64,000 nucleotides of DNA from Candidatus Tayloriibacteriota bacterium (GTDB lineage Bacteria; Patescibacteriota; Minisyncoccia; Phycocordibacterales; HO2-43-120), in NCBI GenBank assembly GCA_039934295.1, contig JBDTMN010000002.1, positions 26,725 through 90,724 of the forward strand, in the 5' to 3' direction. The translations under genes and the position numbers were made by a program. Position 1 is the stretch's first letter, and the number at the start of each line of letters is the position of its first letter. This document shows positions 2,832 through 55,400 of the stretch, one piece after another. Under the pieces are notes generated by a model. It was not told the origin of the DNA, made no database searches, and saw only the letters and a program-made list of their open reading frames with translations.

Positions 2832-4670
2832 TTAAGACTTTTCCCGAAATAGTCTGGCGGAGTTAATGAGTGGGAAAAAGTCGCTCACAAAGTTGTAAAA
2901 TGCCGCCAATGCAGGACCGAGAACCCCGGTGAACACCAGCGCAAAGCCGATTACATTCGACGCAAACCAAATAATCATATCCCACCTAATAACCGACATA
3001 ACTTTTCGGCTATAAGAAATCGTGTCCGGCAGGCGGGATAAATCATCGTTTAAAATCACCACGTCGGCGGCTTCTACCGACACGGCCGCTCCACCCGAAC
3101 CCATTGCAATCCCTACATCTGCCCTAGCAAGAGCGGCAGCATCGTTTATTCCGTCGCCCACCATCGCCACAGGTCCCCCGCCAATAAGTTTTTCAAGTTC
3201 CCGAAGTTTTTCCTCCGGCTTCATTTCCGCGAGAACCTTGTCGATGCCGATCGCCCGAGCAATAGCGCCTGCAACCAATTTGTTGTCCCCTGTAAACATC
3301 TGGATATTATCCACGCCTAAACTCTGCAAATCAGCAATGCTCTCCCGCGCTTCAGGTCGGGGCATGTCACCCATTGAAAGGTATCCCCAGATTTTGCCGT
3401 TTCGAAATACAATCGCCCACGTTTTATCGCTCCCCTCAATCTTTTTCTTAATGCGAGACTTTTCCTCTTCGCTAAGAGCGATAGCAAGGTCAGAAATAAT
3501 GCTGAAATCCCCAATCGCAATCGCCTCTCCCTTGACACGAGCCGTAACACCGCTTCCCTTATACACCTTGAATTCCTCGGGGTCGGGAAAATCGCTCCCA
3601 TGTTTTATCGCTTCCTTAAAAATCGTCCTGCCGATAGGGTGCTCGGAAAACTTCTCTGTTACTCCTACCGCGCGCCAAAAATCGTCTGTGGAAATGCCCG
3701 GTTCGATCTCTATATCTTTAAGCTCAAACGAGCCATAGGTCAAAGTCCCGGTTTTATCGATAACAAGCGTCTTCAGTTTGCTTAATGTCTCTATCCACTC
3801 CCCTCCTTTCACAACCACACCGCGCTTGGCGGACCTGCCGAGAGCCGCCGTAATTGCAAGCGGTATGGCGACAGCCATGTCGTCGGCGCACGCTACCAAA
3901 AAAAGCGCGGCAGTCATCTCAATATTTCGAGTTATGACATAAGTGCCAATTCCCAGCGCGAGAACGATGGGAAGAAAAATCGTCGCAAATCTATCCGCCA
4001 ATTGTTCCGAATGAGATTTCTTTTTCGCCGCATCGGCAACAAGCGCGGCCATGCGTTCAATCGTAGAATCTTTTCCGACCCGTGTCGCCCGAATTTTTAT
4101 TAACCCCGATTCGTTGACCGTGGCGCTCAATACTTGATCGCCCACAACTTTCTCTACCGGCATTGATTCTCCGGTCACTGATGACTCATTTACAAGAGCT
4201 TTGCCAAATATCGTAATACCGTCCACGGGCACTCGGGACCCTTCTTTTATAAGGAGCGTATCCCCCATCGAAATAGCGTCAGTCGGAATCTCCTCGGTAT
4301 CGGCTCCTTTTTCCCTTAGCGCAGTCTGCGGTTTTAATTTAAAGAGTTCCTCGAGGGTTCGCCGGGTGCGCGACTCCGTATAGGCATTCAACATTCGAGC
4401 AAAAGCAAGCATGAGAATAATAAACGTTGCGGAATTCACGTCGCCATAGGCGAATGCCGCGCAAATGGCAAAGATATTGAACGAATCGATGCTAATGCGC
4501 GCCTTAAGCGTCGACTGGACGGCACCAATGAGCGTAGGCAGAGCGCCTAAAACCACTACCGGCCACAAAAAGTAAATCGCGGGAGGAAATAGAATTTTCA
4601 CCAAAAAGGCGATGACTATTGCAATCACCAAGGCAAAATCCATTTTCGTATTTACGTGCGCGTGGTTCAT
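2832..4670 (-). CDS. Cation-transporting P-type ATPase (HAD superfamily), no N-terminal metal-binding domain
   Basis: Actuator TGES (VTGESMPV), phosphorylation motif DKTGTLT and hinge MVGDGINDAAAL are all present. Multiple TM helices. No clear CPC/CPx motif seen, so ion specificity is uncertain. Confidence 0.85.
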   Translation of the reverse strand: MNHAHVNTKMDFALVIAIVIAFLVKILFPPAIYFLWPVVVLGALPTLIGAVQSTLKARISIDSFNIFAICAAFAYGDVNSATFIILMLAFARMLNAYTESRTRRTLEELFKLKPQTALREKGADTEEIPTDAISMGDTLLIKEGSRVPVDGITIFGKALVNESSVTGESMPVEKVVGDQVLSATVNESGLIKIRATRVGKDSTIERMAALVADAAKKKSHSEQLADRFATIFLPIVLALGIGTYVITRNIEMTAALFLVACADDMAVAIPLAITAALGRSAKRGVVVKGGEWIETLSKLKTLVIDKTGTLTYGSFELKDIEIEPGISTDDFWRAVGVTEKFSEHPIGRTIFKEAIKHGSDFPDPEEFKVYKGSGVTARVKGEAIAIGDFSIISDLAIALSEEEKSRIKKKIEGSDKTWAIVFRNGKIWGYLSMGDMPRPEARESIADLQSLGVDNIQMFTGDNKLVAGAIARAIGIDKVLAEMKPEEKLRELEKLIGGGPVAMVGDGINDAAALARADVGIAMGSGGAAVSVEAADVVILNDDLSRLPDTISYSRKVMSVIRWDMIIWFASNVIGFALVFTGVLGPALAAFYNFVSDFFPLINSARLFREKS

Positions 4671-4778: not shown

Positions 4779-4960
4779 GCTCGTCCTATCCCCGTAGCAG
4801 AGCTAGCGGGGTATTCGGCGAGCGCATTTTATTTTGAAAACCCCTCGGTTTTCAACGCTCGCCGACTCGCTGCTTTCCGCCACGGGGAAACTCCCGTTTC
4901 CCCGACCCCCTTCCCAAACTCCGCATTCATCCCCGCAGCAGAGCTGTGGGGAATTCTGCG
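4779..4960 (-). repeat. GC-rich hairpin-rich intergenic repeat, diverged inverted copy (copy 3 of family at 12411 and 21496)
   Basis: The reverse complement shares the blocks ctgcKgcggggatgaatg and cgaataccccgc...cggggataggacgag with the other two copies. The central long hairpin is replaced by a different hairpin (cggggaaactcccgtttccccg). GC is far above the surrounding sequence. Confidence 0.55.
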
Positions 4961-4966
4961 GATTTA

Positions 4967-6511
4967 TTAAACGAATCCGGGAAAATAGTCAGTTTTGATT
5001 TTAGAGCGTTTGACACCGATGCCTCGGAGAATTGCTTTGTACGAAGTTACCATCGCCTGCGGTCCTGAAATATAAAACTTTCGCTCCAGAAAATCAGGGA
5101 CTTCTCGTTTAACGGTTTGAGCAAAAAGCGCGGACAGCGCTTCCGGAGACAAGTGAACGCCGTCGTCGCTATATGAATAGACTGTTTTAATCCCGAGCTC
5201 CTTCTTTGCCCTTTCAAAAATATCCGAATATACGGCATCATTCGGAGTTTTATTGAAATACAAAAGAGTGATAGGGCGCGCCTCGCGGTTGTGAAGAAGA
5301 TACTGAATCATACTCCGAAACGGAGTGACCCCTATTCCCCCAGCGATGAAGACAAGCTTTTTATTTTTATTCTTTGGCAAGGTAAAATCGCCCGCGATCT
5401 CGGAAGCCACGATAGACTTCCCTGTGCTCATCGCGAGCATGGCTTTTTTGAATGTGCTTCCCGGTTCATAGAATTTCACCCCGATGGAAAGTTCTCGCTC
5501 GGTCGGAGAGGACGCAAGAGTAAAAAAACGCCTCACGCTCCGGCTATCGGGATGCGAGTGCGCAAGTGTCCACTCCATGTACTGCCCCGGCCGAAACGAA
5601 ACCGGCCTGTCTGACGCAAAAGCAAATTCATACACGTCTCGGGAAAGCCGAACTACTCGTTTCAGTTTCAAATTGAGCTTATATTTCGGGCTGACGAGAT
5701 ACGAAAATACATTTCCCACCAGAAGCGCGAGCTCGGGCGTGAAGTAGAAAGAACCGATGTTCACGTTCGGCAAAAACAGCAGGCCGACGAGAGCTCCGTA
5801 GAGTACACGCAATAATTTCGAGGGCGGAGTAGTCATCGGTTCCGTGAGCATAACCGTTGCAAAGAAAAACGTGGGAGCATAGAGCAACGCCTGACTTAAA
5901 GAACGCACGACATCAAGCCCTCTTCCAAAATAATAAAAGGCAATCCCCACAGTAAACACCCCTATGAAAGCAAACCACAAATCAAATCGTCGTATTTTCC
6001 GAACAATGAGAAGCCCCCCAATGAGCACAAACGGGACCATAGGAAGCGTCCCTATCCACCAACTAGCTGACAAGCCTAAAACAACGCTAGTAGCCGCCAC
6101 ACCGAAAGCGACGGGATTGAAAACATGCTTCTTTCGAATGGCTAAAATATATTTTGAGGCTATGGCAACTGCGGACGCCCAAAATGCGAGCGGAAGATAT
6201 TGCATATCGATCCAAAGAGTAGGGGGACTTATAATCAAAGCAAGAATGAGCGCGGTTATCCACGTTGATTCAGGATTCGAAGGAACCTCGAACATCCGAG
6301 CAAAAATTTTGTTCACAATCCAAGAAACAGAAAAAATAAAAGCCACCGAGAAAACAAGAAAAATAGGGTTTACCGGAAACACGCCAAAAAATCCCATGAT
6401 GAAGGCGACGAGCAAAAGAAAAGCAAGCTCGTACACCACGAGTCGGTACATCGTTATCCTATTTAATATTTTGTCGATTGCTTTTATCATCATGTATTTA
6501 AAAACCGGCAA
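4967..6511 (-). CDS. Membrane oxidoreductase: polytopic N-terminal domain (RnfD/NqrB-like by inference) fused to FNR-like FAD/NAD(P)H-binding domain
   Basis: The C-terminal half has an FAD-binding motif (RRFFTLASSP), an NAD-binding GGIGVTPFRSM motif and a C-terminal YxSGP-like segment (FYISGPQAM), as in the ferredoxin-NADP reductase family. The N-terminal 290 aa has about 8 TM helices with an HVFNPVAFG segment reminiscent of the RnfD/NqrB FNPA region. It overlaps the apbE end by 14 nt, so the two are co-transcribed. Confidence 0.7.
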   Translation of the reverse strand: MPVFKYMMIKAIDKILNRITMYRLVVYELAFLLLVAFIMGFFGVFPVNPIFLVFSVAFIFSVSWIVNKIFARMFEVPSNPESTWITALILALIISPPTLWIDMQYLPLAFWASAVAIASKYILAIRKKHVFNPVAFGVAATSVVLGLSASWWIGTLPMVPFVLIGGLLIVRKIRRFDLWFAFIGVFTVGIAFYYFGRGLDVVRSLSQALLYAPTFFFATVMLTEPMTTPPSKLLRVLYGALVGLLFLPNVNIGSFYFTPELALLVGNVFSYLVSPKYKLNLKLKRVVRLSRDVYEFAFASDRPVSFRPGQYMEWTLAHSHPDSRSVRRFFTLASSPTERELSIGVKFYEPGSTFKKAMLAMSTGKSIVASEIAGDFTLPKNKNKKLVFIAGGIGVTPFRSMIQYLLHNREARPITLLYFNKTPNDAVYSDIFERAKKELGIKTVYSYSDDGVHLSPEALSALFAQTVKREVPDFLERKFYISGPQAMVTSYKAILRGIGVKRSKIKTDYFPGFV

Positions 6512-7250
6512 CGGTAAAATCCAAAAATCCGCTCGTCATAACAGCAATACCATTTTTGTCTATTGCATATCCTTCAAAGTCTGAAATACTTTCGATAAAT
6601 TCAATCCCTCGATTGCCCATGGCAAACGCCGCAGTCGCAAAACGGTCCGCCTCGTATACGTCGGGTCCAATAACCGTCAAACTCACCATGTCGGTTTCCA
6701 CCGATTTTCCAGAATGAGGATTATAGATATGCTTGCCTCGAATATACACTCCCGAAGTTGCCACGCCTCGGCCTTTAGGATACACCACTTTAACTATTTC
6801 ATCACGATTGAATGGACTGCGGATACCGACGCTCCATTCTTTGCCCTCCTCATCGATACCTCGCGATTCAATGTCCCCTCCTACATCTACGAAGAAATTT
6901 TTACAGCCCATTTTTTTCAAGAGTTGTGCCGCATTTTTTATTGCCCAGCCTTTGACAATCCCCGAAGGGTCGTATGAGCCATCCGGTTTTTGTATGTCGA
7001 AATATCCAAGCGTTTCTTTTTTTGTTTTTTCAGAGAGAGTGAAAATTTCTTTCATTTCCTTGCTCAATTTTTCAGACGAAATTTCCCCCCTGTTAATTCT
7101 AGAAATTTCGCTATCATATTTGTAGGTGCTGAATTTTTCATCAACATGCTCGAGATAGTCGAACACGCGGTCAAAATATTCCTGACTTCCCGGAATGTCT
7201 GCAATGTTAACGGTTACTGGCATTCCCATTATGTCTCGAGTTTGTTTCAT
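6498..7250 (-). CDS. apbE: FAD:protein FMN transferase (ApbE family)
   Basis: 250 aa. The N-terminus MGMPVTVNI...FDRVFDYLEHVDEKFSTYKYDSEISRINRG is the characteristic ApbE opening. It lies between an FMN-binding domain gene and a flavoprotein gene. Confidence 0.8.
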   Translation of the reverse strand: MKQTRDIMGMPVTVNIADIPGSQEYFDRVFDYLEHVDEKFSTYKYDSEISRINRGEISSEKLSKEMKEIFTLSEKTKKETLGYFDIQKPDGSYDPSGIVKGWAIKNAAQLLKKMGCKNFFVDVGGDIESRGIDEEGKEWSVGIRSPFNRDEIVKVVYPKGRGVATSGVYIRGKHIYNPHSGKSVETDMVSLTVIGPDVYEADRFATAAFAMGNRGIEFIESISDFEGYAIDKNGIAVMTSGFLDFTVAGF

Positions 7251-7256
7251 TATTTT

Positions 7257-7862
7257 TTAAATTTTTGCCTGTGCAAGAGCATATGCGAGAGATTGACGGA
7301 ATGCGGCACTTATGTCGGTTGCCCCCGAAACAGTGCTCACTTTTGCGCTTTGCGCCTGTATCGCTTCGCTTACCAATCGGGGCATCGCACGGCTACTTAT
7401 ACTCCTCGATGTACTGCGGTCATTCGGATATTGAAGAAAAGATATGTCAGTAATTTTTCCTCCGGCAATAGTAACTGCCACCTCGACGTTTCCATAATAC
7501 GCATCGGCAATACTGCCATTGTACGAACCATCAACATACTGGCCAGCTGGTTTTGGTTTTGGAATGATTATAGGAGTAGGTATTGGAGTCGGAATTGGGG
7601 TTGGAGTTGGAGAGAAAATAATTAAAGGTGTCGGCTTAGGTTTGGGTAATGGCTTTGGCGAAATGGAAGGAGAGACGGTGAGCGTGGGAATCGGTGTTGA
7701 AGGAGTAGTCGGCACAACTATGACTCCGTTGTCATTGACGCGAGAAAGCGGAATCGGGACGGTAACGACAAATGCAGGCGAGCTCGGATAAGCCAACGCC
7801 CGATACATTCCATATGCGGCAAAAGCTACAATAAATATTGCTGACGTAATGAATTTTCTCAT
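7257..7862 (-). CDS. FMN-binding domain protein (NqrC/RnfG-like), membrane-anchored with Pro/Thr/Lys-rich linker
   Basis: N-terminal TM helix, then the linker PKPLPKPKPTPLIIFSPTPTPIPTPIPTPIIIPKPKP. The FMN_bind core reads YVDGSYNGSIADAYYGNVEVAVTIAGGKITDISF...VSTVSGATDIS. The SGAT threonine motif is the ApbE flavinylation site. Confidence 0.8.
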   Translation of the reverse strand: MRKFITSAIFIVAFAAYGMYRALAYPSSPAFVVTVPIPLSRVNDNGVIVVPTTPSTPIPTLTVSPSISPKPLPKPKPTPLIIFSPTPTPIPTPIPTPIIIPKPKPAGQYVDGSYNGSIADAYYGNVEVAVTIAGGKITDISFLQYPNDRSTSRSISSRAMPRLVSEAIQAQSAKVSTVSGATDISAAFRQSLAYALAQAKI

Positions 7863-7952: not shown

Positions 7953-8681
7953 CTATTCTGATTCTCCAGAAGAAAATCTTCGGACGCCACTTGCCTCTAT
8001 TTCGTCGTCATCTTCGCCAAAAGAAGGCCCGAAAACATATACCTTATCGCCGATTTTGAGAAGTGGAGAATCTGGAGGAAGAATAACCTTGCGCGTTCCG
8101 TCATCTTCATCATGGTCCTTGTCGTCATGAGAAATGACAATAGTGTTCCCTTCCTTAGAAACAACACTCCCCCGAAATATTCCTTTCTCAGCGTGCGACT
8201 CGCGAATACGTCCATACGCTCCTCCAATCAAAGGCAATACCCCTTCGTCTGCGCGGTTCAAAAGAATTCTATTGAGCGGAGTATAATTGGCAAGAACGCC
8301 CAAAATGGCACTCGACGCAAATATAAAAAGAAAGATCGGGAGGAGAGGAATCCGGTAGCCGAATTTGAATGCCTGCAAGAGCCATTCAAGCAGGAACAGG
8401 AGCGCAATACCTAGGAGAAAAAATGCCCACGGGAAAAGCGAGAGGAAAACAAGCGCGCCTTGCCCCCCAAAGCCGAGTAAGAAGTGCTGTCCGCTTTCCT
8501 GAATGCTGAAAAAGATGAAGCTCGCGAGAAAAATGGAGAGGAGGAGAACAAGCGCCGAAGTAAAAATAATGCCCGCTATGCGCACAGCAAAAAATGCTTT
8601 CGACTTCATATGCACTTTGCTCTTACGAACTTTATCGAGCACCATATTCTGAATATTCTGTTCTATATTTTTTTCACTCAT
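7953..8681 (-). CDS. Putative anti-sigma factor / membrane protein partner of the ECF sigma
   Basis: The ORF overlaps the stop of the ECF sigma gene. The likely start is the internal Met (MSEKNIEQ...) at about 8681. There are several TM helices and a C-terminal soluble domain. The call rests on context only. Confidence 0.4.
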   Translation of the reverse strand: MSEKNIEQNIQNMVLDKVRKSKVHMKSKAFFAVRIAGIIFTSALVLLLSIFLASFIFFSIQESGQHFLLGFGGQGALVFLSLFPWAFFLLGIALLFLLEWLLQAFKFGYRIPLLPIFLFIFASSAILGVLANYTPLNRILLNRADEGVLPLIGGAYGRIRESHAEKGIFRGSVVSKEGNTIVISHDDKDHDEDDGTRKVILPPDSPLLKIGDKVYVFGPSFGEDDDEIEASGVRRFSSGESE

Positions 8682-9234
8682 TTTCTTTTTTGGGTAACAG
8701 CTTTTTAAGCGCCTCACGCGCCCGGGAAAGACGGATACCAACTGTGCCAATCGGTATATGCAAAATGTCACCTATCTCTTTGTAGCTGAAATTTTCGAAA
8801 TAGTAGAGACCGATGATTTCTCGATAGGAAGACGAGAGCCCCAGCAGGCTCTTCTCTAGTAGTACGCGCATTTCCTCCGCTTCTTTCTCTTTTTCAAGCG
8901 GGTCCTCATATTCCGCATGGGACATCACTCGGTCAAGGTCGAAAAAGTATAATGGCTCTTTGGCTTTTTTTCGAATTACATCAACAAACGCATTGTGCGC
9001 AATGCGGTAAATCCAGGGCGAAAAACGACGTGTTGAATCGAAATCCTGTATATTTTGATACACCGTCACAAAAACATCCTGCACAACATCGCCCACATTA
9101 TTTTCCTTTGAGAGAACCCTGCTTCCATACCGAAGCAACTTTCCTGTATAGCGTTCCATGAGAATAGCGAACGCCCGTTCATCCCCTTTCTGCACTTGTC
9201 TTGCAAGTTCTTCGTCCGAAGCAACATTATCCAT
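8674..9234 (-). CDS. RNA polymerase sigma-70 factor, ECF subfamily
   Basis: 186 aa with region 2 (YRIAHNAFVDVIRKK) and region 4 HTH (FSYKEIGDILHIPIGTVGIRLSRAREALKK). Confidence 0.85.
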   Translation of the reverse strand: MDNVASDEELARQVQKGDERAFAILMERYTGKLLRYGSRVLSKENNVGDVVQDVFVTVYQNIQDFDSTRRFSPWIYRIAHNAFVDVIRKKAKEPLYFFDLDRVMSHAEYEDPLEKEKEAEEMRVLLEKSLLGLSSSYREIIGLYYFENFSYKEIGDILHIPIGTVGIRLSRAREALKKLLPKKENE

Positions 9235-16737: not shown

Positions 16738-19014
16738 CTATTCTTCTTTACCGCAAAGCTTGATAAGAGCGAGCTCGAGCGGGAGCTGGGGAAGGTACGA
16801 GAAGCCCACTTTGTCCAGAGCATTGAGAAGCACAATGACCGTTTTGGATGAAATTTTCAAGGTCGGGTTTGCGCTCATTTTTTTGAGAAAATTAAAATCG
16901 TTCTGCCCTGTCTCCTCCTTGATTTCCTCTTCCATCTCCTTGGCGTATTTCAAAAGCAGGATGAGACGGACTTTGAAAAGGACGAGCTTCACATAGGTTT
17001 TCATGTCGATATTTGCCTCAGCGGCATTTCGAACGGCGCTCAAGCCTCGCTCTATATTTTGCTCCTCTATGGCCTCGATACATTCGTTCACAAGCTCCGC
17101 GCGAGGCGCGCCGGTGACCATTTCCACCTCGTCATGAGTGATTTTTTTGTCCTTCGAGAAACTCAACACCTTCTGCAAAATCCCCTGCGTGTCCCGAAAT
17201 GACCCTTCGCCCAAAAGTGCGATGAGCTCGAGCGAAGGCGCCTCGAGCGAATAGCCTTCCTTTTTGGAGATGACGGACACCACGTCCCGTAAAACTTCGA
17301 GCGATGGCTTTTTGAAATTAAAAACCTGACAGCGAGAGATAATGGTCTCGGGCAATTTCTCCATTTCGGTTGTGGCTAGAATAAAAACAACATGCTCCGG
17401 TGGCTCTTCCAAAGTTTTTAAAAGAGCATTATTAGCTTCCTTTGTAAGCATATGGCAGTTAGAAGAACATATTCCATTTGCAATAAAAGTATGCGTATCT
17501 TCGACGGTAAAATCGTATACTCTTGCATTCTCCTCTAATCTTTCAATAGTAAGTATTTTTTCGTATCGAAATTGTAAATACGGATTAAATTCCGGTGCTT
17601 CAGCTACCTTTATAAATTCTTTCACGGTCTCACGCATAAGACCCTGAAATTGATCGAGGTATATACCATGTTGATTCAATATCATATGGCTAAGGCGTAA
17701 TTCTTTTCGTCTCGCAAGAAAAGGGACTTGGAGAGGAATACTATCTTGCTTCTCTGCATGGTCAAATTGATTTTTAAGTACATCTGCTTTTCTTTGAATA
17801 GACAACCCAATAGAATTTTGAAAAATTCTTAGATCATATCCCGTAATGTTCAAGCGATATACTGTCTGATGCTTTATATTTTTTCGCTTGATTTCCATTG
17901 CACCGCTTCCGATGCCGAATTTTTTTAACAGAAGTTGAAGTTTTTTGGAAAAAATAGGAGAGCAAGAGTTAAAACTTAATTTAAAAAGTCTTGTCGATTT
18001 TGTAAATGTTGCATCACCCTCGCAGCAAAAACATGTATCAATATAAGCTCTTATGCTTTCAAGAGGTGCTTGGAAAATCGCATCAGGAATATCGATAGAA
18101 TTACTTTTTTTTCCCGAAGGACAGAGTAATTTGATGAGTTCCTTTTTTAGTTGCGGTGAATACGACCTTAGCAATGTAGTACCCCGTTTCGTCTTCGTAA
18201 TAGTCACTTCCCCACCACAATTCCATGCTTTGCATCCATTTGTAAAAGAGGAAATGAAATATTGGACATCTTTTGAGATCTCAACTTGAATTGTGCAAGA
18301 ATCTTTCGAAATATGACCATCACATTGTATCAGTGCGAGAAAAGCAGCTTGATCTTTTGTCAATAGATTTTTCGCTTTATGAGGCAAACTTGCAGGACTT
18401 ATAAGAAAATCTGAAAAATTTATATCTTCTGCCTTAACAAGAGAAAATGCTCCCTTTCTCATCACCCATAATTTATGCGTTGGAGTACATTTTAATGTTG
18501 ATTGAGGTGTACGAATACTGATTAGTTCTTTGGTTTTGCGTGAAAACCAATTAGAGATTTTTTTAAATACAATCGTTCCCGAATTTAAATCGACTGAGGC
18601 GACTTCATCCCCATTTTTTATTTCAGCGATAGATTTAACTGCTCCGTCTGCAAGCTGGATTAAATGATCAGATGTTAGACATTCGTCCACTATGTATACT
18701 TTGTGCTTTGAATCAAAGGGCAGAGTGCTCACCCCTTCGCGAAGTTCGCGCACGTCGTCAATCCCGCGATTCGACGCGGCATCAATTTCATAGAGGTCGT
18801 TGTCGGAGGTGCCGATTTCTCGCGCAAAAATCCTCGCAATCGAAGTTTTTCCGGTCCCCCGAGAGCCCTCGAAAAGATAGGCATGAGAAATTTTGCCTGC
18901 TTCAATAGAGCCCTTCAACACCTTCACGATATGGTCCTGCCCCAAGACATCTCGGAATGATTGAGGGCGGTATTTGCGATAGAGGGCTAATTTGCCCTTT
19001 TTTTCCTCTCCCAT
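16738..19014 (-). CDS. dnaX: DNA polymerase III subunit gamma/tau, interrupted by an intein
   Basis: Walker A GSRGTGKTS. The box KVYIVDE is followed by about 408 aa starting CLTSDHLIQLADG and ending HTFIANGICSSN, then CHMLTKEANNALLKTLEEPPEHVVF resumes the DnaX sensor region. The exteins sum to about 350 aa, a normal DnaX size. Confidence 0.85.
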   Translation of the reverse strand: MGEEKKGKLALYRKYRPQSFRDVLGQDHIVKVLKGSIEAGKISHAYLFEGSRGTGKTSIARIFAREIGTSDNDLYEIDAASNRGIDDVRELREGVSTLPFDSKHKVYIVDECLTSDHLIQLADGAVKSIAEIKNGDEVASVDLNSGTIVFKKISNWFSRKTKELISIRTPQSTLKCTPTHKLWVMRKGAFSLVKAEDINFSDFLISPASLPHKAKNLLTKDQAAFLALIQCDGHISKDSCTIQVEISKDVQYFISSFTNGCKAWNCGGEVTITKTKRGTTLLRSYSPQLKKELIKLLCPSGKKSNSIDIPDAIFQAPLESIRAYIDTCFCCEGDATFTKSTRLFKLSFNSCSPIFSKKLQLLLKKFGIGSGAMEIKRKNIKHQTVYRLNITGYDLRIFQNSIGLSIQRKADVLKNQFDHAEKQDSIPLQVPFLARRKELRLSHMILNQHGIYLDQFQGLMRETVKEFIKVAEAPEFNPYLQFRYEKILTIERLEENARVYDFTVEDTHTFIANGICSSNCHMLTKEANNALLKTLEEPPEHVVFILATTEMEKLPETIISRCQVFNFKKPSLEVLRDVVSVISKKEGYSLEAPSLELIALLGEGSFRDTQGILQKVLSFSKDKKITHDEVEMVTGAPRAELVNECIEAIEEQNIERGLSAVRNAAEANIDMKTYVKLVLFKVRLILLLKYAKEMEEEIKEETGQNDFNFLKKMSANPTLKISSKTVIVLLNALDKVGFSYLPQLPLELALIKLCGKEE
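17457..18681 (-). mobile_element. Intein in dnaX (about 408 aa) with LAGLIDADG-like homing endonuclease segment
   Basis: Begins with Cys, ends ...SSN with Cys at +1. An internal LALIQCDGHIS block resembles a LAGLIDADG motif. The boundaries come from extein motif continuity. Confidence 0.7.
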
Positions 19015-25869: not shown

Positions 25870-26766
25870 TTATTTTTTTAGTAAAATACTGACTGCCTTC
25901 GTCACAATCGGCAAAATGTCGTTATATAGGTTAAGCTCGATGATCTCGTCAATTTTAAACCATCGGGCGTCGTTGAGACCCCCCGACTCCCCAAGAGTAA
26001 TCGGCGTATACTTCGATTCTCCCAGAAAATAGTGGACCTCTTTTCTGATTTTGCCTTTCTCGGGGTCCGATGCGATATATTCATTCTTGCCCAAATCTTC
26101 TTTTATCTCAATGTCGAGGCTGAGCTCTTCTTTAATCTCTCGTATTGTCCCCAATTTTACGTCTTCATCCCCTTCGAGCTTGCCTTTGGAAAGGGTCCAA
26201 TGTCCGAAAATATCGTGGACAAAAGCAAGATAGATGGTTTTTTTGCTTTTAGCGAAAACAACAGCCCCGCCCAATTTGATTATCGTCATGTCCTCGTAAG
26301 CGATTTCGGGACGAATTTTCTTCTTTGAAACCTCATCTTTCCCCGGCTCCCCCATTTCCTTATACACAGAGCCGAGCACGCCGTTTACAAATTTGCCACT
26401 ATTTTCTCCGCCAAATTTTTTTGCGAGCTCAATTGCCTCATTAATTGCAACTTTGGCAGGCACTTCAGCTCGGTCCGAAAACAGTAGCTCAAAAAGCCCG
26501 ATGCGAAGGACATTGCGATCCACGTATGAAATTTTGGCGATCGGCCATTCGGGAGCGGCTTTTTCGATTACCTGATCCAAATCTGCTCTCTTTTTTAATA
26601 TATCTTTTGCAAGCGAGACCACGAAAGACAAATCACCGATGCCTGGAGCGAATTCCTTGGCATTTCTCGCTAATATCTCATCAATATCGCTCTCTTTTCT
26701 TTGGGCAAAATCCCACTCGAAGAGCGATTGGAGAACTATTGATCTTGAAAGGTGCCTGTTGGCCAT
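25870..26766 (-). CDS. nusB: NusB transcription antitermination factor fused to a C-terminal NUDIX hydrolase domain
   Basis: The N-terminal 140 aa has a NusB fold pattern (RSIVLQSLFEWDF...NEAIELAKKFGGE). The C-terminal 150 aa carries the Nudix box GKLEGDEDVKLGTIREIKEELSLDI. Confidence 0.75.
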   Translation of the reverse strand: MANRHLSRSIVLQSLFEWDFAQRKESDIDEILARNAKEFAPGIGDLSFVVSLAKDILKKRADLDQVIEKAAPEWPIAKISYVDRNVLRIGLFELLFSDRAEVPAKVAINEAIELAKKFGGENSGKFVNGVLGSVYKEMGEPGKDEVSKKKIRPEIAYEDMTIIKLGGAVVFAKSKKTIYLAFVHDIFGHWTLSKGKLEGDEDVKLGTIREIKEELSLDIEIKEDLGKNEYIASDPEKGKIRKEVHYFLGESKYTPITLGESGGLNDARWFKIDEIIELNLYNDILPIVTKAVSILLKK

Positions 26767-28053: not shown

Positions 28054-29703
28054 TTATTCCGCAACGATATGGTCTTTGAAATAGCGGAGGGTACTACCGA
28101 CTTTCTTGCCTGGGTTCAGAATGTTTTGCGGGTCAAAAATGTTTTTTACCTCCTTGAAAAGCGCCATGATTTCTTCTCCATACATCTTTGGAAGATAGGG
28201 TGTCCGCACAATGCCGTCTCCATGCTCGGCCGTGATCGAGCCCTTGTATTCTAAGACCAACTTATAGACTTCGCTTGAGACGTTCATAATAATCCCCTTT
28301 TCACGCGGGTCGCGCATGTCCATAAGGGGAATAATATGGAAGTTGCCGTTGCCTACATGCCCCGCAATGGTATAGACGAGTTTGTATCTGTCCAAAATTT
28401 CCGTTAGCTTCGGCATGAATTCGGGCAGGTGTTCGGGTCGAACAATAATGTCGTCGATGAAGGGCGCCGTTCTGCGATTCTTCACATGTTTGCGAAGGAG
28501 ATTGAAACTCTCACGGCGGATCGTCCAATACTTTTTTGATTCTTCCTCCGACGCAGTCACGCGAGTTTTTAAATGAAATGGCGCAAGATGTGCGTCAAGT
28601 TTCTGCATCTTGTCGTTCACGGCAGACTCGGAATCGTCCGCAAATTCGACGAGCACCACGAGCTTGGGCATCCCGCCTGTCACCATCATCCACGCTTCAG
28701 GAAGAAAACTCCACATAAGCTTCAAGAAACTGGTTTTCATCGTGCGCACCATGTCCGGCATAAATTTGATAGCTAGCATTAGAGTGTGGTCATCGTATGA
28801 TTCGAAACTCTCCGGCTTAAAGGGTAAAATTTCATTCACAAGCTTCGCGACAGGGTCGAGGCTTTTTAGGAAGATGACGTATAGTTTTGAATATTTCTTC
28901 ACCGGCACGAGCTTGAAAGTAATTTCGGTCGTAATCGCCAAAGTCCCCTGCGAGCCGACCAAAAGCTTATTCAAATCAAACGTCACTCCATCCCAGACAT
29001 TCCAAAGAAAGTATCCGGCGGAATTCTTGGAAACTTTGGGCTTCGCGCTCGCAAGCAAGTCTTTGTTTTTTTCGACGAGTTCAAAAACGCGTTTGTAGAT
29101 ACTACCTTCAAAATCGTTCTGCGACATTTTGATGTCGAGTTCGGGTTTTGCAAGTGGTTTAACAACATACTCGTTGCCGTCAGAAAAAATCACTTTGAGC
29201 TTATTAATGTAATCTTCCGTTTTTCCATAAGCGAGCGTTTTTTCCCCTCCCGAATTATTGCCTACCATTCCTCCTACGGCGCACAATTCTTTCGAGGCGG
29301 TATAGGAAGGCAGAAACACGCCTTTCTCCAACGTCTTCTTTTCAAAATCCCTATAGAATGTTCCGGGGAGAACAACAGCTTCTTCGTGGCCGGCTTCGGC
29401 AGAAACAGAAAGAGTCCCCTGCATGTATTTGTTGACATCGAGAATAATTGAGTCATTCAAAGGTCCTCCCGACATGCACGTGCCAGCCGCCCTCGGCGTT
29501 ATCGAGAGCGTCGGATTTTCTTTTTTGCGGTCTCGAACAAATCTGACAAGATTTTTTATATCCTCGACATCTTTTGGAAAGACGACTAGCTCCGGCGTCA
29601 CTTCAAGGAGACTCGCGTCGTGGCTGTATTTTTTGAGCGATTCCTCATCGTCCGCCACATCGCCTTTCACAAATTGTTTTATTTCTTCTTTCATGATATT
29701 CAA
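28054..29703 (-). CDS. FAD-linked oxidase (GlcD / D-lactate dehydrogenase-like, PCMH-type FAD-binding domain)
   Basis: 549 aa with an N-terminal FAD-binding segment (RAAGTCMSGG) and the typical C-terminal FAD-oxidase tail IFDPQNILNPGKKV. Confidence 0.7.
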   Translation of the reverse strand: MNIMKEEIKQFVKGDVADDEESLKKYSHDASLLEVTPELVVFPKDVEDIKNLVRFVRDRKKENPTLSITPRAAGTCMSGGPLNDSIILDVNKYMQGTLSVSAEAGHEEAVVLPGTFYRDFEKKTLEKGVFLPSYTASKELCAVGGMVGNNSGGEKTLAYGKTEDYINKLKVIFSDGNEYVVKPLAKPELDIKMSQNDFEGSIYKRVFELVEKNKDLLASAKPKVSKNSAGYFLWNVWDGVTFDLNKLLVGSQGTLAITTEITFKLVPVKKYSKLYVIFLKSLDPVAKLVNEILPFKPESFESYDDHTLMLAIKFMPDMVRTMKTSFLKLMWSFLPEAWMMVTGGMPKLVVLVEFADDSESAVNDKMQKLDAHLAPFHLKTRVTASEEESKKYWTIRRESFNLLRKHVKNRRTAPFIDDIIVRPEHLPEFMPKLTEILDRYKLVYTIAGHVGNGNFHIIPLMDMRDPREKGIIMNVSSEVYKLVLEYKGSITAEHGDGIVRTPYLPKMYGEEIMALFKEVKNIFDPQNILNPGKKVGSTLRYFKDHIVAE

Positions 29704-33155: not shown

Positions 33156-34151
33156 CTATTTTCTTTTTAAAACTTTATTGACCGCATCTCTAATATCTTT
33201 TTCGCCCATTCCATAATGCTCGAGAAGTTCCTCTGGCTTTCCTGATTGACCGAATTCATCTTTCACTCCTACAAACTCTTGTGGAACGGGATAATTTTTG
33301 GCCAAGAATTCTGCAACAGCGGAGCCCATTCCGCCAGCTATTTGATGCTCCTCTACAGTGACAATTCTTCCCGTCTCTTTAGCAAGACGCAGTATGGCAT
33401 GTTCGTCCAAGGGCTTAATGGTTGAGAGATTAAGAACTTTCACTCCTATCTTCTCTTTCTCCAATTCCTTGGCGACTTTGAGCGCTTTGTGAAGAAGCGC
33501 GCCTGTCGCGATAATACCCACTTCTGCCTTTCCTACAATTGGTTCGAAGAAAACGTGCGCTTTTCCTACCTCAAATGGAGTATCCTCCGTAGTTATAACA
33601 GGAGTTTTATCGCGTGCGAGCCGAAGATAAACCGGCTTCCCCATCTTCGCCACAGCTTGGGTTGCCTTCTTGGCTTCTATTGCATCGCATGGCGAAATTA
33701 CAACCATGTTGGGAATAACCCGAGTGATGGCAATGTCTTCAATCGCCTGATGCGTCCCCCCATCGGGACCCACAGAAATTCCAGCGTGTGAGCCCGCTAT
33801 AATTACCGCTCTGTCGTTGTAACAAATCGTTGTGCGAATCTGCTCCCAGTTTCTGCCCGGAGAAAACATGGCGTAAGAGGAAATGAACGGGATTTTCCCC
33901 ATTGCTGACATCCCCGAAGCCACGCTAGCCAAATTCTGCTCGGCCACCCCCATTTCGATAAACCTCTCTGGAAATTTATTTTTGAAAAGATGCATCTTGG
34001 TGCTCTCTGTTAGGTCAGCGCAAAGGCCCACGACCCTTTTGTCCGCTTCTCCCGCGAGCACCAAACCTTCCCCGAACCCTTTACGGATTTCGGCCAATTC
34101 GACATCATTGTCAAAGAGTTTGGAATTGAGTTTTTGAGATTGGCTTAACAT
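33156..34151 (-). CDS. Transketolase, C-terminal (pyrimidine-binding) subunit
   Basis: FIEMGVAEQNLASVASGMSAMGKIPF pyrimidine-binding domain. 331 aa. Confidence 0.85.
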   Translation of the reverse strand: MLSQSQKLNSKLFDNDVELAEIRKGFGEGLVLAGEADKRVVGLCADLTESTKMHLFKNKFPERFIEMGVAEQNLASVASGMSAMGKIPFISSYAMFSPGRNWEQIRTTICYNDRAVIIAGSHAGISVGPDGGTHQAIEDIAITRVIPNMVVISPCDAIEAKKATQAVAKMGKPVYLRLARDKTPVITTEDTPFEVGKAHVFFEPIVGKAEVGIIATGALLHKALKVAKELEKEKIGVKVLNLSTIKPLDEHAILRLAKETGRIVTVEEHQIAGGMGSAVAEFLAKNYPVPQEFVGVKDEFGQSGKPEELLEHYGMGEKDIRDAVNKVLKRK

Positions 34152-34457: not shown

Positions 34458-35324
34458 CTACTCATGTTCACTCCTAATCTTTCCTCCCAGCGTTCGGAGC
34501 GCGTGAAGAGCAATCTTTTTCTCCTCCGGAGTGGTCGGAGGCTTGCCATGCCATTCGAATTTTCCTTCAAATTCTGGAATGCCCTTTGATGGAATCGTGT
34601 GAGCTATAATTACCGATGGCTTCTCGCTCACCGCCCGTGCTTGCCCAACCGCCTCGTCAATTGCCCGAAAGTTATGCCCATCCACCTCCTGCACATGCCA
34701 GTTGAATGACCTCCATTTGTCCACAATGGGCTCTAAAGGCATGATGTCCTCGGTGAAGCCGTCTATCTGAATGTTGTTGCGGTCCACTATCGCCGTCAGG
34801 TTTTGCAATTTTTCTTTCCCGGCAAGAAGTATCGCCTCCCACGTTTGGCCTTCATCATGCTCGCCATCGGACATAAGGCAATAAAATTGCTTTCCGCTTG
34901 AGCGCCCGTTGTCCATGCGGTCTGCAAGCGCCATACCTACAGCTTGTGAGAGACCTGCGCCGAGTGGTCCCGACGAGGTTTCAAGCGAGGGAAGCCATTC
35001 TCGGTGTGGATGCCCCTGAAGACGTGTGCCGAATTTGCGAAGCGTCTTCAATTCCGAGACGGGAAAATATCCGGCGTGGGCCATCGTAGCGTAGAGAACC
35101 GGACAAATGTGGCCGTTTGAAAGCACAAGTCGGTCTCGCTCCGACCAGTCCGGCTTTTTTGGGTCATGCTTCAACGCGTAAAAATAGAGGTATGTAAAAA
35201 TATCGGTCATGCCAAGTGGCCCCGCCGTGTGTCCCGAGCCAGCCTCGATGAGCATCTCAATAATCGAGGTGCGGATTTGGTTGGCTGTGAGTTCAAGTTC
35301 GTGAATTTTTTTGTCATCCAACAT
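34458..35324 (-). CDS. Transketolase, N-terminal (TPP-binding) subunit
   Basis: GSGHTAGPLGMTDIFTYLYF and SNGHICPVLYA are transketolase N-terminal motifs. Confidence 0.85.
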   Translation of the reverse strand: MLDDKKIHELELTANQIRTSIIEMLIEAGSGHTAGPLGMTDIFTYLYFYALKHDPKKPDWSERDRLVLSNGHICPVLYATMAHAGYFPVSELKTLRKFGTRLQGHPHREWLPSLETSSGPLGAGLSQAVGMALADRMDNGRSSGKQFYCLMSDGEHDEGQTWEAILLAGKEKLQNLTAIVDRNNIQIDGFTEDIMPLEPIVDKWRSFNWHVQEVDGHNFRAIDEAVGQARAVSEKPSVIIAHTIPSKGIPEFEGKFEWHGKPPTTPEEKKIALHALRTLGGKIRSEHE

Positions 35325-45292: not shown

Positions 45293-46213
45293 TTACAAAC
45301 TTAAGATTGCTCGCTTTGCGAGCTCGATTGCTCCTTCTTTCGACTTCGCCACAACCAAAAAGCGGTTGTTGTGGCAAAAGATGGCGTCGGCCACTCCGGT
45401 CGCTTTTGCGAGCTCCTCGTTTCTTTTTCCCGCCCAAGCCTCTGGCATGTCTTTTCGGCTTACAAACTGCGCCAAAGAATCCCTGACCGCTTTTACGCCG
45501 TATGTACCATCGGCGCGGTGATACACCACAAAAAGAGGTTCGGGCAATTTCGATAAAACCTCCTGCCAAAAATATTCCTTCTCAAGAACCACAATTCTTT
45601 TGTCCTCTGATTTCCTATAATCTTCAAGGACTCTCTTTTCCCCTTCCATTTCGTCTTGCAAAAACTTGACAGCTCGCGAGAGAATCTTTTTGCAGAGGCG
45701 CACAGTTTCCTCAAATTTCGCAAAAGCCGTGTCGCTTTCTTCTTTCCAGGTGGGGTTCGACATCAAGACAAACTGATGCAAGGAATAGGAGTTGATATCG
45801 GGGAAAATTGGCTTTGAAAGAGCCACTCCGTTGTCATGGGCATCGAAAGGAGCCACGAGCTCAAGGTCGATTCTTTGAGCGACCTCAATTGAGCCTCCGC
45901 AGATTTCCCTTCCAAACTTCTTCCACACCAACCCGAATGCGGCAAAGGGAATTTCGTTTTCTCTTCTTCCCGCCCCGCCTTTCTGATGGTGGTCAAAACG
46001 ATTCTTTTTTTCATCGTAGACATCCCCTACGTCAACGACATATTCTCCCCTTTCCCAGTCCTTCGGGTTTCGACTTCTTACTATCTCGACTTCTTGAGCT
46101 TCTTTTTTCAAGTGAAGAAGAAGAGTGGCCACGGCAAAACAGTCATCCGTATGGAATGTTCCTGTGTGAGTCACAATGACGGGCTTGTTAGTTTTAGAAT
46201 TTTTCTCTTCCAT
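45293..46213 (-). CDS. MYG1/UPF0160 family metal-dependent hydrolase
   Basis: VTHTGTFHTDDCFAVATLLL...DVGDVYDEKKNRFDHHQ is the UPF0160 signature. Confidence 0.7.
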   Translation of the reverse strand: MEEKNSKTNKPVIVTHTGTFHTDDCFAVATLLLHLKKEAQEVEIVRSRNPKDWERGEYVVDVGDVYDEKKNRFDHHQKGGAGRRENEIPFAAFGLVWKKFGREICGGSIEVAQRIDLELVAPFDAHDNGVALSKPIFPDINSYSLHQFVLMSNPTWKEESDTAFAKFEETVRLCKKILSRAVKFLQDEMEGEKRVLEDYRKSEDKRIVVLEKEYFWQEVLSKLPEPLFVVYHRADGTYGVKAVRDSLAQFVSRKDMPEAWAGKRNEELAKATGVADAIFCHNNRFLVVAKSKEGAIELAKRAILSL

Positions 46214-46742
46214 AATTGAGGGTTTTTACGTGCCAGACCAGATCATCAATAAATTTCTCAACGCGCTCGTCATATTTTTTATCCAGAATATTTCCTTTCT
46301 TATCAAAAAGTTCCTCAACATTGCCGAAATAAAGAGTGTTGAGCGATACCACCAACCCAAGTTTTCGAAACACGTGTATCAACAACTCCACCATTCTTGC
46401 TCCTCCAAAAATCCCGTTTGAGACCGCAGCCACGGCAACCGGCTTTCGTTTGTACTCTCCGTATGCCGAATCCAAGATAATTTTGAGTTCCCCGGGAAAT
46501 CCGTGATTGTACTCGGGAGAAACAATAATAAATCCCTCCGCTCTCTTTGCAATTTCTCTCCATCGCGTTACTTTTGGATCATCTTCCCACGAAGGAATGG
46601 TCCGACCAAAAAGGTGGTCCCGAACATCAATAAGTTCCGTTTCAATATCTTTTCTTTTTTGGATGCGGGGTAGGATATAATGGGCTACTTTCTCCGAGAA
46701 TCTTCCCTTCCTCGCTGTACCTAACAATATGGGTATATACAT
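46194..46742 (-). CDS. NADPH-dependent FMN reductase (flavodoxin-like fold)
   Basis: IPILLGTARKGRFSEKV...FIIVSPEYNHGFPGELK matches the NADPH-dependent FMN reductase family. Confidence 0.7.
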   Translation of the reverse strand: MYIPILLGTARKGRFSEKVAHYILPRIQKRKDIETELIDVRDHLFGRTIPSWEDDPKVTRWREIAKRAEGFIIVSPEYNHGFPGELKIILDSAYGEYKRKPVAVAAVSNGIFGGARMVELLIHVFRKLGLVVSLNTLYFGNVEELFDKKGNILDKKYDERVEKFIDDLVWHVKTLNYGREKF

Positions 46743-52432: not shown

Positions 52433-55400
52433 TCACAATAAGTTCTGTAACATCTCGATTATCCATCGCAAAATTTTATACAACGTGTTCCAAAACTCTT
52501 GCAAAATGCCCATGAAAGATGCGCTGAGTGCCTTCAAGACCCCTGCAGTAACATTGACGGGAGAAACCGAGTCGGTATTTGTTTTGATACTTACGCTTAC
52601 GCCCGGAGCTTCCTGGCCAGGATGATTGAAGCGGTAGCCGGCGGGAATATTGTCAGCGGTTTGAGCAGCGTTTGTTGGAGAATATGGCGGCCAGGAGAGT
52701 GAGCCGAACCATGCGGGTTTGGAGGAAAGGTAGAGAGAATTTGGCAGAGTCTGTCCTCCCGTCAAGGCTTCATTTGCAGGAATGCCTTTGCCGAAAATAT
52801 AGTTCTGTTTCCTGATGAACGTGAGTCCGACATCCATATCAAGTTCCTGGAATCCTTCTGATCTCGGCCAAAGACCTATGGCAGTTCCCTGTGCCGGAAG
52901 TGGGTCTAGGTATCCTCCGGTAAGAGAAACAGCATTGCCGGAAAAAGCAGTCGTATGCATGCCTATTCGAGCGCCATTGCTCCATTGCGTTGTAATCGCC
53001 GGACAATTTCCTCCAAAAGCCTGGCAGTATCCTAGCAGTCGCGAAGTTCCGGCGCTCAAGGTTACGACACCGCTTGAACCATCAGATGCGCGACTAGTGA
53101 GGGTACCTTTGATGCCGAGCCCGGCGACAGGGCTCCAGTCTAGCCAATATATGCCTTGGCTCGGTAGGGCAAATCCCGTGGAGGCTCCATTGCCGATGTT
53201 CGGCTGGCCGAGACTATATGCACCTACGACATTACCGATGGCACTAAAATTCCTGGAAAAACGCTTGAAGGCAAGAAAGCCCGATGTCCAGTTCCTAAAG
53301 AACATTTCTTCCGAATCGCTTCCAAAATAGCCGTCTGATTTGAATTCGCCTCCCTGCAAATAATTTCCTTCATATAGATTGTAGCTATTATGAGAACCAT
53401 GGTTGACGTTCACACTGCCGTCAGGCATATAATTGTAGGCGAAAACATTACCTACGGAACTAAAGTTTATTTCAAGAAGCGGGAATGATTTGTAAACGAT
53501 GTTATCTTCAAACAGACATCCGGTATTTCCTCCGCTCAAAAATCCAGAGCCATTTGTACCGCCATGGTTGAGCTCGTCGAGGAAGGAATGTCTGACCTCG
53601 CACCCCAAGCTATCATTAAAACTTATCGAGTAATTACTCATGTGTCTGACTTTGACATTCTTGACCCATGAAGCGTATGTGCCTCCAGCGCTTATTCCAA
53701 ATTGAGTGGTGGCATTTGACCCGTCAATGGTCAGGTCTTCAATACCGACATACCTTGAGGTTGCATAATTCGGCGCAGTGATGCTTGGCTGTCTCCCTGA
53801 AAAATCAACGATAAGAGGCGGGGAGAAGCTAAGGGCGCTACCTGACTTCCCAGTCAGAACCACAATCTGGGATTGGATATTTTCGTAGCCCGAGACTGAT
53901 ATAGTCGGTAGAGATGTTTTATTTTTTCCGCTTATTTTGACTATATTTCCAACTGTATATGGTGATGAGTCAGAAACGCTGACTTGAGTGCTTCCCTTCG
54001 AAGCGCCTGAAAGGACCGGCACGGCAGAAACATTGTAAAATTCAGATCCGCGTATATTCACACAGACGCTTGGAACATAACAATCAAGAATAGTACTCGC
54101 TCCTGCTCCGCGAAGCGTTATATTACTCTTAAAAGATGCGACGATCTGGGTCAAGATCTTATAGGTTCCCGCGGGCAAATAAACAATATCATTTGCCACC
54201 GCGGCGGTGATGGCACTATTTATGGCTGGAGCGGCATCGGTAGCTCCAGTTTTATCCGCATTGTAGGGCGCTTGGGTGACATCAATGAGATGAGTGCGAT
54301 TTGTCGGAATCCCTCCAGTAACGCCTGCGGTAACTCCAGGAATCCAGTTGGCCAAACGGTTTGAAGGTATCAAAGCAGATGATCCGCCTGGAGTGGTTGC
54401 TGCAACACCTGCCGACGGAGGCGAGACATTTCCGCCGTTATCTGTAGCCGTCACTGTGTATGTATACGTCGTACCTGGGGAGACGGTGAAGTCCTGGTAG
54501 TACTGCTGTTCCGTATCATGATACGGAGCTTGGTACGGTATGTGCGCAATAGTCCCTATCTGGGTTCCATTCCTATATATAGTATACGAAGTAATGGTTC
54601 CGGTTGTTGGCGTTGAGCGCAACCAGATAAGGCTGATTTGGTCTGGCGCCACGCCGGCAGCCGATACATAGGTCGGCGCGGGCACGCCACTTACTGAAGA
54701 TAAGTTGAATGTTGCTGTAACTGTCGTATTTGAAGCTACAGTGACTACACATGTCCCCGTTCCACTACATCCTCCTCCAGACCAACCGGTGAAGGTAGAG
54801 CCCGAAGTAGCTACAGCGGTAAGAGTTGAAACTGTGCCAGAGGTGAGGCCTGAAGCCGAACAGGTACTGCCACAACTCACAGATCCTCCTGTGGAAGTCA
54901 CCGTACCTCCTCCCGTGCCTGCCTTGGTGATCGTAAGAGTAAATGTTGTTGGCGTCGCTACTCCACTAGTAGTAACCGATAAAGCGGCTGACGGAACGGA
55001 GTTATTGGGAGCTCCCGCGTTGTCATAGGATGATATAGTGTATGAATATGTGGTGCTTGCCACAAGACCAGAGTTGGCGAAAGAGGTACCGGATGTTACC
55101 GTGCCCACTTGAGCCCCTCCTCTCCATACTTTGTATCCCGCCACGTTTCCTCCCCCAGTATCAGTCGAAGCTGTCCATGAAATAGTTGCTCCTGTTTGGG
55201 TTACGTTTGATGACGAAAGATTTGTAGGTACGGACGGAGCTTGTGTGTCTGAAGGAGAGCCGGAACCACTACCATCTGTAGCGGTAACACTTCTAAATCC
55301 GTAGTCAGTATCCGCGCCTCCATATGCCCTGAGCCAGCCTATGCCGGGTGCACCACTGGCAAAGGTGCTGTCAGTAGTCGTAAGTATGGAAACATTGTTG

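Follow-up and report, generated by a model that had tools for sequence, protein, structure and literature searches.

The 64,000-nucleotide stretch analyzed here, called the window below, comes from a Candidatus Tayloriibacteriota bacterium (contig JBDTMN010000002.1, positions 26,725 to 90,724). On its minus strand, between positions 4967 and 7862, it carries three tightly packed and intact open reading frames (ORFs) that encode an FMN_bind protein, an ApbE-family flavin transferase, and a protein in which a membrane domain is fused to a ferredoxin-NADP-reductase (FNR)-type domain (Table 1). A first-pass annotation made from the sequence alone had placed the three ORFs at the same coordinates and had described them as co-directional and overlapping genes. 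Positions and orientation were confirmed, but the overlap was not. The FMN_bind and apbE genes are separated by 6 nt, and apbE overlaps the fusion gene only if the latter is read from its annotated TTG start at 6511. Since most homologues of the fusion protein begin at the position of an ATG at 6493 (giving approximately 505 to 508 residues, or approximately 494 when they are called from a later Met), we regard this ATG as the likely start, which leaves a gap of 4 nt after the apbE stop codon.

The FMN_bind protein matches the Pfam family of that name (E=9.4e-7, residues 122-196), and its nearest solved relative is the FMN-binding domain of an ApbE substrate (structure 8p2a, E=2.2e-13). Its SGAT sequence (residues 179-182) is part of a V-S-G-A-T motif that aligns with the SGAT of 8p2a, the form [IV]-[STA]-G-A-[ST] is kept in every FMN_bind homologue listed, and Thr182 is the predicted site of flavinylation. 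The domain is preceded by a linker containing 30% Pro and 13% Thr and by an N-terminal signal anchor, called from hydrophobicity and charge analysis, which in the homologues takes the form of MKK followed by a hydrophobic helix. In 42 of 43 homologues the N-terminal flank of the anchor is more positive than the C-terminal flank (net charge +3.2 versus 0.0), which predicts an N-in/C-out orientation. This agrees with the first-pass description of a membrane-anchored protein with a flavinylation motif on a long linker, and the cytoplasmic, anchor-less protein that would have spoken against that description is not what the analysis predicts. Export of a pre-folded flavoprotein through the twin-arginine translocation (Tat) pathway was considered and rejected, as only 2 of the 43 homologues have RR in the N-terminal flank and the Tat consensus is absent.

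The second gene encodes the flavin transferase that the first-pass annotation had recognized. The protein matches Pfam ApbE (E=4.6e-43) as well as the solved ApbE structures 4xgw and 2o18 (E approximately 1e-24), and the active-site motifs FSTYK, ATSG, HIYNP, and EADRFAT are kept across 49 ApbE proteins encoded in related clusters. FSTYK aligns with LSTYK of the E. coli enzyme (the Y60 region). Judged from its sequence, the protein has what is expected of an ApbE fold with an FAD-stacking Tyr, a catalytic His, and a metal-binding D/T motif. It is, however, short and has no leader. The alignment with 4xgw and 2o18 opens at approximately residue 35 of the E. coli constructs, which are themselves signal-less, the N-terminus is the first core β-strand itself (MKQTRDIMGMPVTV), no secretion signal, lipobox or hydrophobic segment is found in the protein, and the ORF is not extendable upstream. 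The same three elements are missing from approximately 66 of 66 cluster ApbEs from five phyla, a set made up of approximately 49 close and 17 divergent proteins that includes those of the diderm Mesorhizobium and of Agreia. With every examined cluster ApbE leaderless, the ApbE of Nqr/Rnf-like clusters is presumably cytoplasmic.

The membrane domain of the fusion protein resembles RnfD and NqrB weakly at the sequence level and clearly at the fold level. Its match to Pfam NQR2_RnfD_RnfE (PF03116) reaches 29.5 bits against a gathering score of 27.7 bits and spans residues 139-273 and positions 157-286 of the 296 in the profile. A sequence search of the PDB with the full protein returned FNR domains only, the FNR domain likewise dominates the matches when the full-length model is used in a fold search, and it took a profile or a fold search with the membrane domain to retrieve RnfD. 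With a profile built from 20 sequences the only PDB match was RnfD of A. vinelandii (8ahx_D, E=5.6e-4), and hhalign gave a probability of 90.8% for the alignment with E. coli RsxD. The AlphaFold2 (AF2) model of residues 1-278 (pLDDT 88.7, pTM 0.86) found exclusively RnfD or NqrB chains at ranks 1-15 of a Foldseek search of the PDB, with TM-scores of 0.67-0.70 to RnfD and 0.52-0.58 to NqrB, and the next matches were urea transporters with E approximately 1. It is clear from these searches that the resemblance to RnfD/NqrB, which the first-pass annotation had suspected from the HVFNPVAFG segment (residues 129-137), is real, and that the domain fused to the FNR-like half is of this fold. A haem-based membrane domain of the NOX/ferric-reductase type was rejected, the Pfam family Ferric_reduct (PF01794) giving no match and the fold being that of RnfD.

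The model shows approximately 10 membrane helices and not the eight counted originally. Basic clusters (K9/K14/R18, R126-K128, R171-R175, K232/R235, and K276/K278) lie on the FNR-domain side of the membrane, and together with the model this positive-inside pattern gives a predicted N-in/C-in topology with the FNR domain inside and the loop of residues 146-155 facing outward. This short loop occupies the place of a loop of approximately 94 residues that is flavinylated in RnfD. FNP131-133 of the fusion protein aligns with FNP121-123 of RsxD and A149 with A218, and between these anchors RsxD residues 124-217 are replaced by 15 residues, so that approximately 79 residues are missing compared with E. 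coli RsxD. The missing part contains S184-Q-A-T187, of which T187 is the flavinylated Thr, and on the basis of this alignment the covalent-FMN site of RnfD/NqrB is deleted in the fusion protein. A Thr/Ser flavinylation site in the membrane domain, which the first-pass annotation had proposed to look for, is therefore not there, and its loss had already been published (see below). A flavinylation motif elsewhere in the fusion protein, in a cytoplasmic loop or in the FNR domain, was also considered and discarded, as no conserved [ST]GA[ST]-type site exists; those Ser and Thr residues that are invariant in the family are part of the usual FNR or RnfD motifs. W151 and W152 of the outward loop are invariant in 39 sequences.

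The C-terminal half of the fusion protein, predicted from the topology model to be cytoplasmic, matches Pfam NAD_binding_1 (PF00175, E=6.6e-10) and, weakly, FAD_binding_6. Its NCBIfam matches are the FNR-type reductase domains of flavohaemoprotein, PaaE, Fre, and NqrF, with TIGR01941 (nqrF) scoring 38 bits where the cutoff is 295. Foldseek returned FNR-family structures with E approximately 1e-16, the NqrF and SpNOX dehydrogenase domains among them, and the motifs RRFFT, GGIGVTP, and YISGP as well as an aromatic C-terminal tail are present.

The search of other genomes for the fused architecture, as suggested with the first-pass annotation, revealed a large family. The 120 best database matches of the fusion protein share 53-70% identity with it and are approximately 494 to 529 residues long; the few that are named by source come from Paceibacteria, Kaiserbacteria, and Parcubacteria or Patescibacteria group bacteria. 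One database protein is 100% identical, and the same locus is present in a public read-set assembly. Relatives occur in at least 471 species-representative genomes, the best loci of which encode proteins with 50-56% identity to the window protein, and are distributed over Patescibacteria of many classes, Chloroflexota (Dictyobacter, Ktedonospora), Alphaproteobacteria (Mesorhizobium, Kaistia), Spirochaetota, and Actinobacteria (Agreia, Pseudolysinimonas). The membrane domain alone, searched with a limit of E<=1e-30, retrieved relatives that form 365 clusters at 50% identity, and since most of these are approximately 500 residues long, fusion to an FNR domain is the standard architecture of the family. 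The order FMN_bind, ApbE, fusion is kept in at least 56 of 80 related loci, in Patescibacteria, Chloroflexota, Alphaproteobacteria, Spirochaetota, and Actinobacteria. A divergent subgroup of loci has a more distant ApbE and an FMN_bind protein with an SGSS-type motif.

Collectively, the domain content (PF03116 and PF00175), the RnfD/NqrB fold, the loop deletion, the topology, the gene order, and the ApbE motifs lead us to conclude that the trio quite probably belongs to the published NQR/RNF-like (Nqr/Rnf-like) systems for flavinylation-associated transmembrane electron transfer, composed of two subunits and a dedicated flavin transferase. Meheust et al. 2021 (eLife 10:e66878, PMC8238504) defined the NQR/RNF-like system by PF03116 and PF00175 domains in a flavinylation cluster and found it mainly in Actinobacteria and the candidate phyla radiation (CPR). 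In the window both domains reside in one protein, PF03116 N-terminally and PF00175 C-terminally, the ApbE and FMN_bind genes lie immediately upstream and thereby within five genes, and at least one signal peptide is predicted (the FMN_bind anchor). Huang et al. 2024 (mSystems 9:e00375-24; PMC10979944 / PMC11334425) modelled the Ktedonobacter racemifer complex with AlphaFold-multimer, reported that NQR/RNF-like systems do not retain the flavinylation site of NqrB/RnfD, and proposed that the FMN of the NqrC-like subunit samples a non-covalent flavin site of the membrane subunit. The fusion protein of the window likewise has lost the flavinylation Thr of NqrB/RnfD and has no [ST]GA[ST] motif. Architecture, Thr loss, and taxonomic home (CPR) thus coincide with the described system, from which we see no substantive difference, and the trio may be called a Paceibacteria-like member of it. 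The first-pass annotation had presented the trio as something new and had made this dependent on the family being undescribed in the lineage; with the reports of 2021 and 2024 from the CPR the novelty is lost, since they already contain its interpretation and most of the checks suggested with it. The functional reading is supported by domains, fold, and synteny. What the analysis mainly yields is that this CPR genome carries the published module as an ordinary family member, and the residual value lies in its biochemistry and in the puzzle of the leaderless ApbE.

The relation to the classical complexes is one of shared parts. The membrane domain has the fold of NqrB/RnfD (TM-score 0.52-0.70), the FMN_bind protein is the counterpart of NqrC/RnfG, ApbE is the maturation factor, and in NqrF it is the FAD/NADH part that the FNR domain resembles. 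Compared with Na+-NQR (NqrABCDEF) and RNF (RnfABCDGE), the trio lacks NqrA/D/E, RnfA/B/C/E, and Fe-S centres, has the covalent-FMN loop deleted, and combines the B-like and F-like parts in one chain. A Pfam scan of the approximately 60 window ORFs of at least 110 residues found no RnfA/B/C/E or NqrA/D/E, in agreement with the first-pass annotation. Neither the six-subunit Na+-NQR set, with NqrD/E and an NqrF that has a 2Fe-2S domain, nor the RNF set RnfA/B/C/D/G/E with a flavinylated RnfD is present among these ORFs, RnfA/B/C/E being absent and the RnfD loop deleted. That NqrB-, NqrC-, and NqrF-like parts are collapsed into two polypeptides plus ApbE is a fitting description, and it matches the published proposal.

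Two other systems share features with the trio. The NOX/ferric-reductase proteins, such as NOX of Streptococcus pneumoniae, also join a membrane domain to a C-terminal FAD/NAD(P)H domain and send electrons outward, and the dehydrogenase domains of S. pneumoniae NOX and the fusion protein superpose. The membrane domain of NOX/ferric reductases is, however, a six-helix bis-haem domain, whereas that of the trio has the RnfD fold and would be flavin-based; it contains a single invariant His and has no Ferric_reduct match in Pfam. Listeria-type extracellular electron transfer resembles the trio in relying on FmnB, a member of the ApbE family, and on PplA, an extracytoplasmic FMN_bind protein that is flavinylated and acts as the outer carrier. 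None of its parts Ndh2, the quinone step, EetA/B, and the FAD-exporting ECF transporter is found among the window genes, and FmnB is a lipoprotein, in contrast to the leaderless ApbE of the trio. The link to flavin-based extracellular electron transfer made in the first-pass annotation is one of analogy only.

From the domains, fold, topology, motif, and synteny described above we infer the following redox steps. NAD(P)H would reduce FAD in the cytoplasmic FNR-type domain, an activity that goes with the assigned domain, and electrons would then cross the membrane via a flavin site in the RnfD/NqrB-fold domain, as suggested by the work of Huang et al. 2024. This domain presumably retains a non-covalent flavin site after the loss of the covalent-FMN loop. 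The electrons would next reach the FMN that ApbE is predicted to place on Thr182 of the tethered subunit, and this FMN, on its Pro/Thr linker of approximately 80 residues, may move back and forth between the FMN pocket left vacant in the membrane domain and an extracytoplasmic acceptor. Candidates for the latter are oxidants, a partner reductase, and metals such as Fe(III). Whereas electrons in NQR and RNF follow a semicircular path, the flow here would presumably be outward in one direction. The module could in this way be one of the few routes by which reduced, largely fermentative CPR cells dump NAD(P)H electrons outside, and the family is also present in cultivable Ktedonobacteria, Mesorhizobium, and Agreia.

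Several points weigh against this interpretation of the trio. Full-text literature searches found no experimental study of any member of the NQR/RNF-like family, and as to the acceptor, clustering of the neighbours at the 80 loci, with no prior choice of families, revealed no conserved gene for a terminal acceptor or a regulator. A further point is the leaderless ApbE opposite a substrate predicted to face outward, which leaves the site of Thr182 flavinylation unexplained. The matter is not discussed in the two papers that describe the system (Meheust 2021, Huang 2024), and in the former (PMC8238504) a cluster was retained if any single target gene had a signal peptide. The remaining explanations are that flavinylation takes place in the cytoplasm and Sec export follows, that a second and secreted ApbE exists elsewhere in the genomes, or that the topology is an unexpected one. 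A readthrough fusion of FMN_bind and ApbE that would carry ApbE outside was rejected: the two genes share a frame in the window (TAA AAA ATA ATG), but do so in only 10 of 49 related loci, fewer than by chance. That the carrier of the family is flavinylated in the cytoplasm and only then translocated by Sec, or that the carrier is not extracytosolic, or, separately, that the NQR/RNF lineage has in this complex its smallest redox-driven ion pump, we consider conceivable and rather improbable.

Taken separately, it is doubtful that the flavinylated domain works on the cytoplasmic side or that a cytoplasmic ApbE modifies the FMN_bind protein there before export, although several observations point in this direction. 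The module would then fall outside the usual meaning of an extracytosolic flavinylation system. Besides the missing signal peptide, lipobox, and hydrophobic segment in all of the approximately 66 ApbEs, the distance from the FMN_bind stop codon to the ApbE start is -4 to +16 nt in most related loci, which suggests coupled synthesis, the target Thr lies 19 residues before the C-terminus, and cytoplasmic ApbEs are known, for example the one serving the Klebsiella fumarate reductase (review PMC12052999). Against this stand the signal anchor with its N-in/C-out bias in 42 of 43 FMN_bind homologues and no twin-arginine motif, the Pro/Thr linker that is typical of exported tethers, the predicted outward orientation of the pocket left by the deleted loop, and the model of Huang et al. 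2024, which puts the subunit on the outer face; a second, secreted ApbE may also be encoded elsewhere in the genomes. If flavinylation did precede export, no FAD exporter would be needed, which would suit minimal CPR genomes. It is also unlikely that the trio is a minimal redox-driven ion pump, in which the RnfD/NqrB-like domain keeps an ion path and couples NAD(P)H-to-acceptor transfer to the export of Na+ or H+. The fold homology to an NQR/RNF subunit, the invariant polar and charged residues in or near the helices (N67, N79, E81, K120, H129, N132, K172, E224, E260, and N267), and the lack of any respiratory complex in a window limited to sugar-phosphate metabolism would fit such a pump, but the window has no NqrD/E (RnfA/E), the subunits that participate in the coupled steps of NQR and RNF, the conserved polar residues could equally bind flavin, and the published proposal is one of simple unidirectional transfer. 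If true, it would allow a respiration-poor CPR cell to build a membrane potential. The idea that the trio is what is left of an RNF or NQR operon in decay, and has no function, draws on the two of six subunit types that are left and on the lost flavinylation loop, and is effectively refuted by the conservation of the family: the three ORFs are intact, more than 100 full-length homologues share 53-70% identity with dozens of invariant residues, and the gene order is kept across phyla.

Table 1 Features of the flavin module and of neighbouring genes in the window.
Feature	Coordinates	Strand	Remarks
NqrC/RnfG-like FMN-binding subunit	7257-7862	-	201 aa; Pfam FMN_bind
Signal anchor of FMN_bind protein	7791-7862	-	residues 1-24; MRK followed by hydrophobic helix
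Pro/Thr-rich linker of FMN_bind protein	7539-7790	-	residues 25-108; from composition
Compact FMN_bind domain	7269-7520	-	residues ~115-198; Pfam
Thr182 codon, predicted ApbE flavinylation site	7317-7319	-	in V-S-G-A-T, 19 residues before C-terminus
ApbE-family FAD:protein FMN transferase	6498-7250	-	250 aa; Pfam ApbE
Fusion protein	4967-6511	-	514 aa from TTG start; ~508 aa from ATG 6493
RnfD/NqrB-fold membrane domain of fusion	5678-6511	-	residues 1-278
Short outward loop GLSASWWIGT (predicted)	6047-6076	-	residues 146-155; in place of ~94-residue flavinylated RnfD loop
Ferredoxin-NADP-reductase-type FAD/NAD(P)H domain of fusion	4967-5677	-	residues 279-514
Heavy-metal P1B-type ATPase	2832-4670	-	TIGR01525, 496 bits
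Multi-pass membrane protein	7953-8771	-	probable start 8681; three hydrophobic stretches; no family match
ECF sigma factor	8674-9234	-	Pfam and NCBIfam matches
Further metabolic coordinates, given with the transketolase, oxidase, and reductase set	28054-29703; 46194-46742		

Immediately upstream of the trio the first-pass annotation had noted a pair of extracytoplasmic function (ECF) sigma and anti-sigma factors. The sigma factor is well supported, while the supposed anti-sigma factor has no family match. Its gene follows that of the sigma factor with overlapping stop and start codons, and a homologue recurs in only one other of the related loci (L051), where it also adjoins an ECF sigma gene, which suggests an undescribed type of anti-sigma factor; the two may form a regulator pair, in which the membrane protein as anti-sigma is a plausible guess. 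A partnership of this pair with the module, as suggested originally, is not supported by the related loci, only 5 of 80 having an ECF sigma gene at a distance of up to approximately 9 kb. A P-type ATPase is found near the trio in only 6 of the 80 loci, and with such low recurrence the sigma factor pair and the P1B-type ATPase that flank the trio are local context. The ATPase of the window has no N-terminal HMA metal-binding domain, and its membrane segment reads ...VACADD... at the place where a motif of the CPC type is usual in P1B ATPases. Upstream of the ATPase gene, the 296-nt spacer contains a sigma-70-like promoter match (4855-4826) and a TATAAT box at approximately 4690. This spacer between the fusion and ATPase genes also holds a 17-nt direct repeat, AGCTCTGCTRCGGGGAT, at 4788-4804 and 4929-4945 on the minus strand, for which 0.01 matches are expected by chance. 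Rfam returned just two tRNAs in the window, and thus no FMN riboswitch or other RNA element.

Other neighbours among the 80 loci are sporadic and comprise an FtsX-type permease (21), a histidine kinase (20), a response regulator (17), VIT1 (4), and MsrA (3). The kinase and the response regulator, which is of the OmpR type, are often located approximately 1.5-2 kb downstream of the fusion gene, a hint that regulation in other lineages responds to the envelope or to redox state.

The remainder of the window contains genes for sugar-phosphate metabolism, housekeeping genes, and genes for large surface proteins. Encoded here are a split transketolase (33156-34151 and 34458-35324, minus strand), a set of pentose-phosphate and glycolysis genes, a reductase of the FMN_red family, and an FAD-linked oxidase that resembles D-2-hydroxyglutarate or glycolate dehydrogenase, as would be expected of a CPR genome that is reduced and fermentative. 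The gene for DnaX (DNA polymerase III gamma/tau; 16738-19014, minus strand) is interrupted by an intein with a LAGLIDADG homing-endonuclease domain (Pfam Intein_splicing 8.6e-20, LAGLIDADG_3 3.1e-7), and NusB (2.3e-33) and NUDIX hydrolase (2.8e-10) domains are joined in a single ORF at 25870-26766 on the same strand. Two very large proteins are encoded at 52433-57745 and 57917-60793 (minus strand), one of 1770 residues with LamG and fn3 repeats, which are surface-type domains, and one of 958 residues that has no Pfam match; their genes adjoin those of pilin-like (N_methyl) and LVIVD-repeat proteins.

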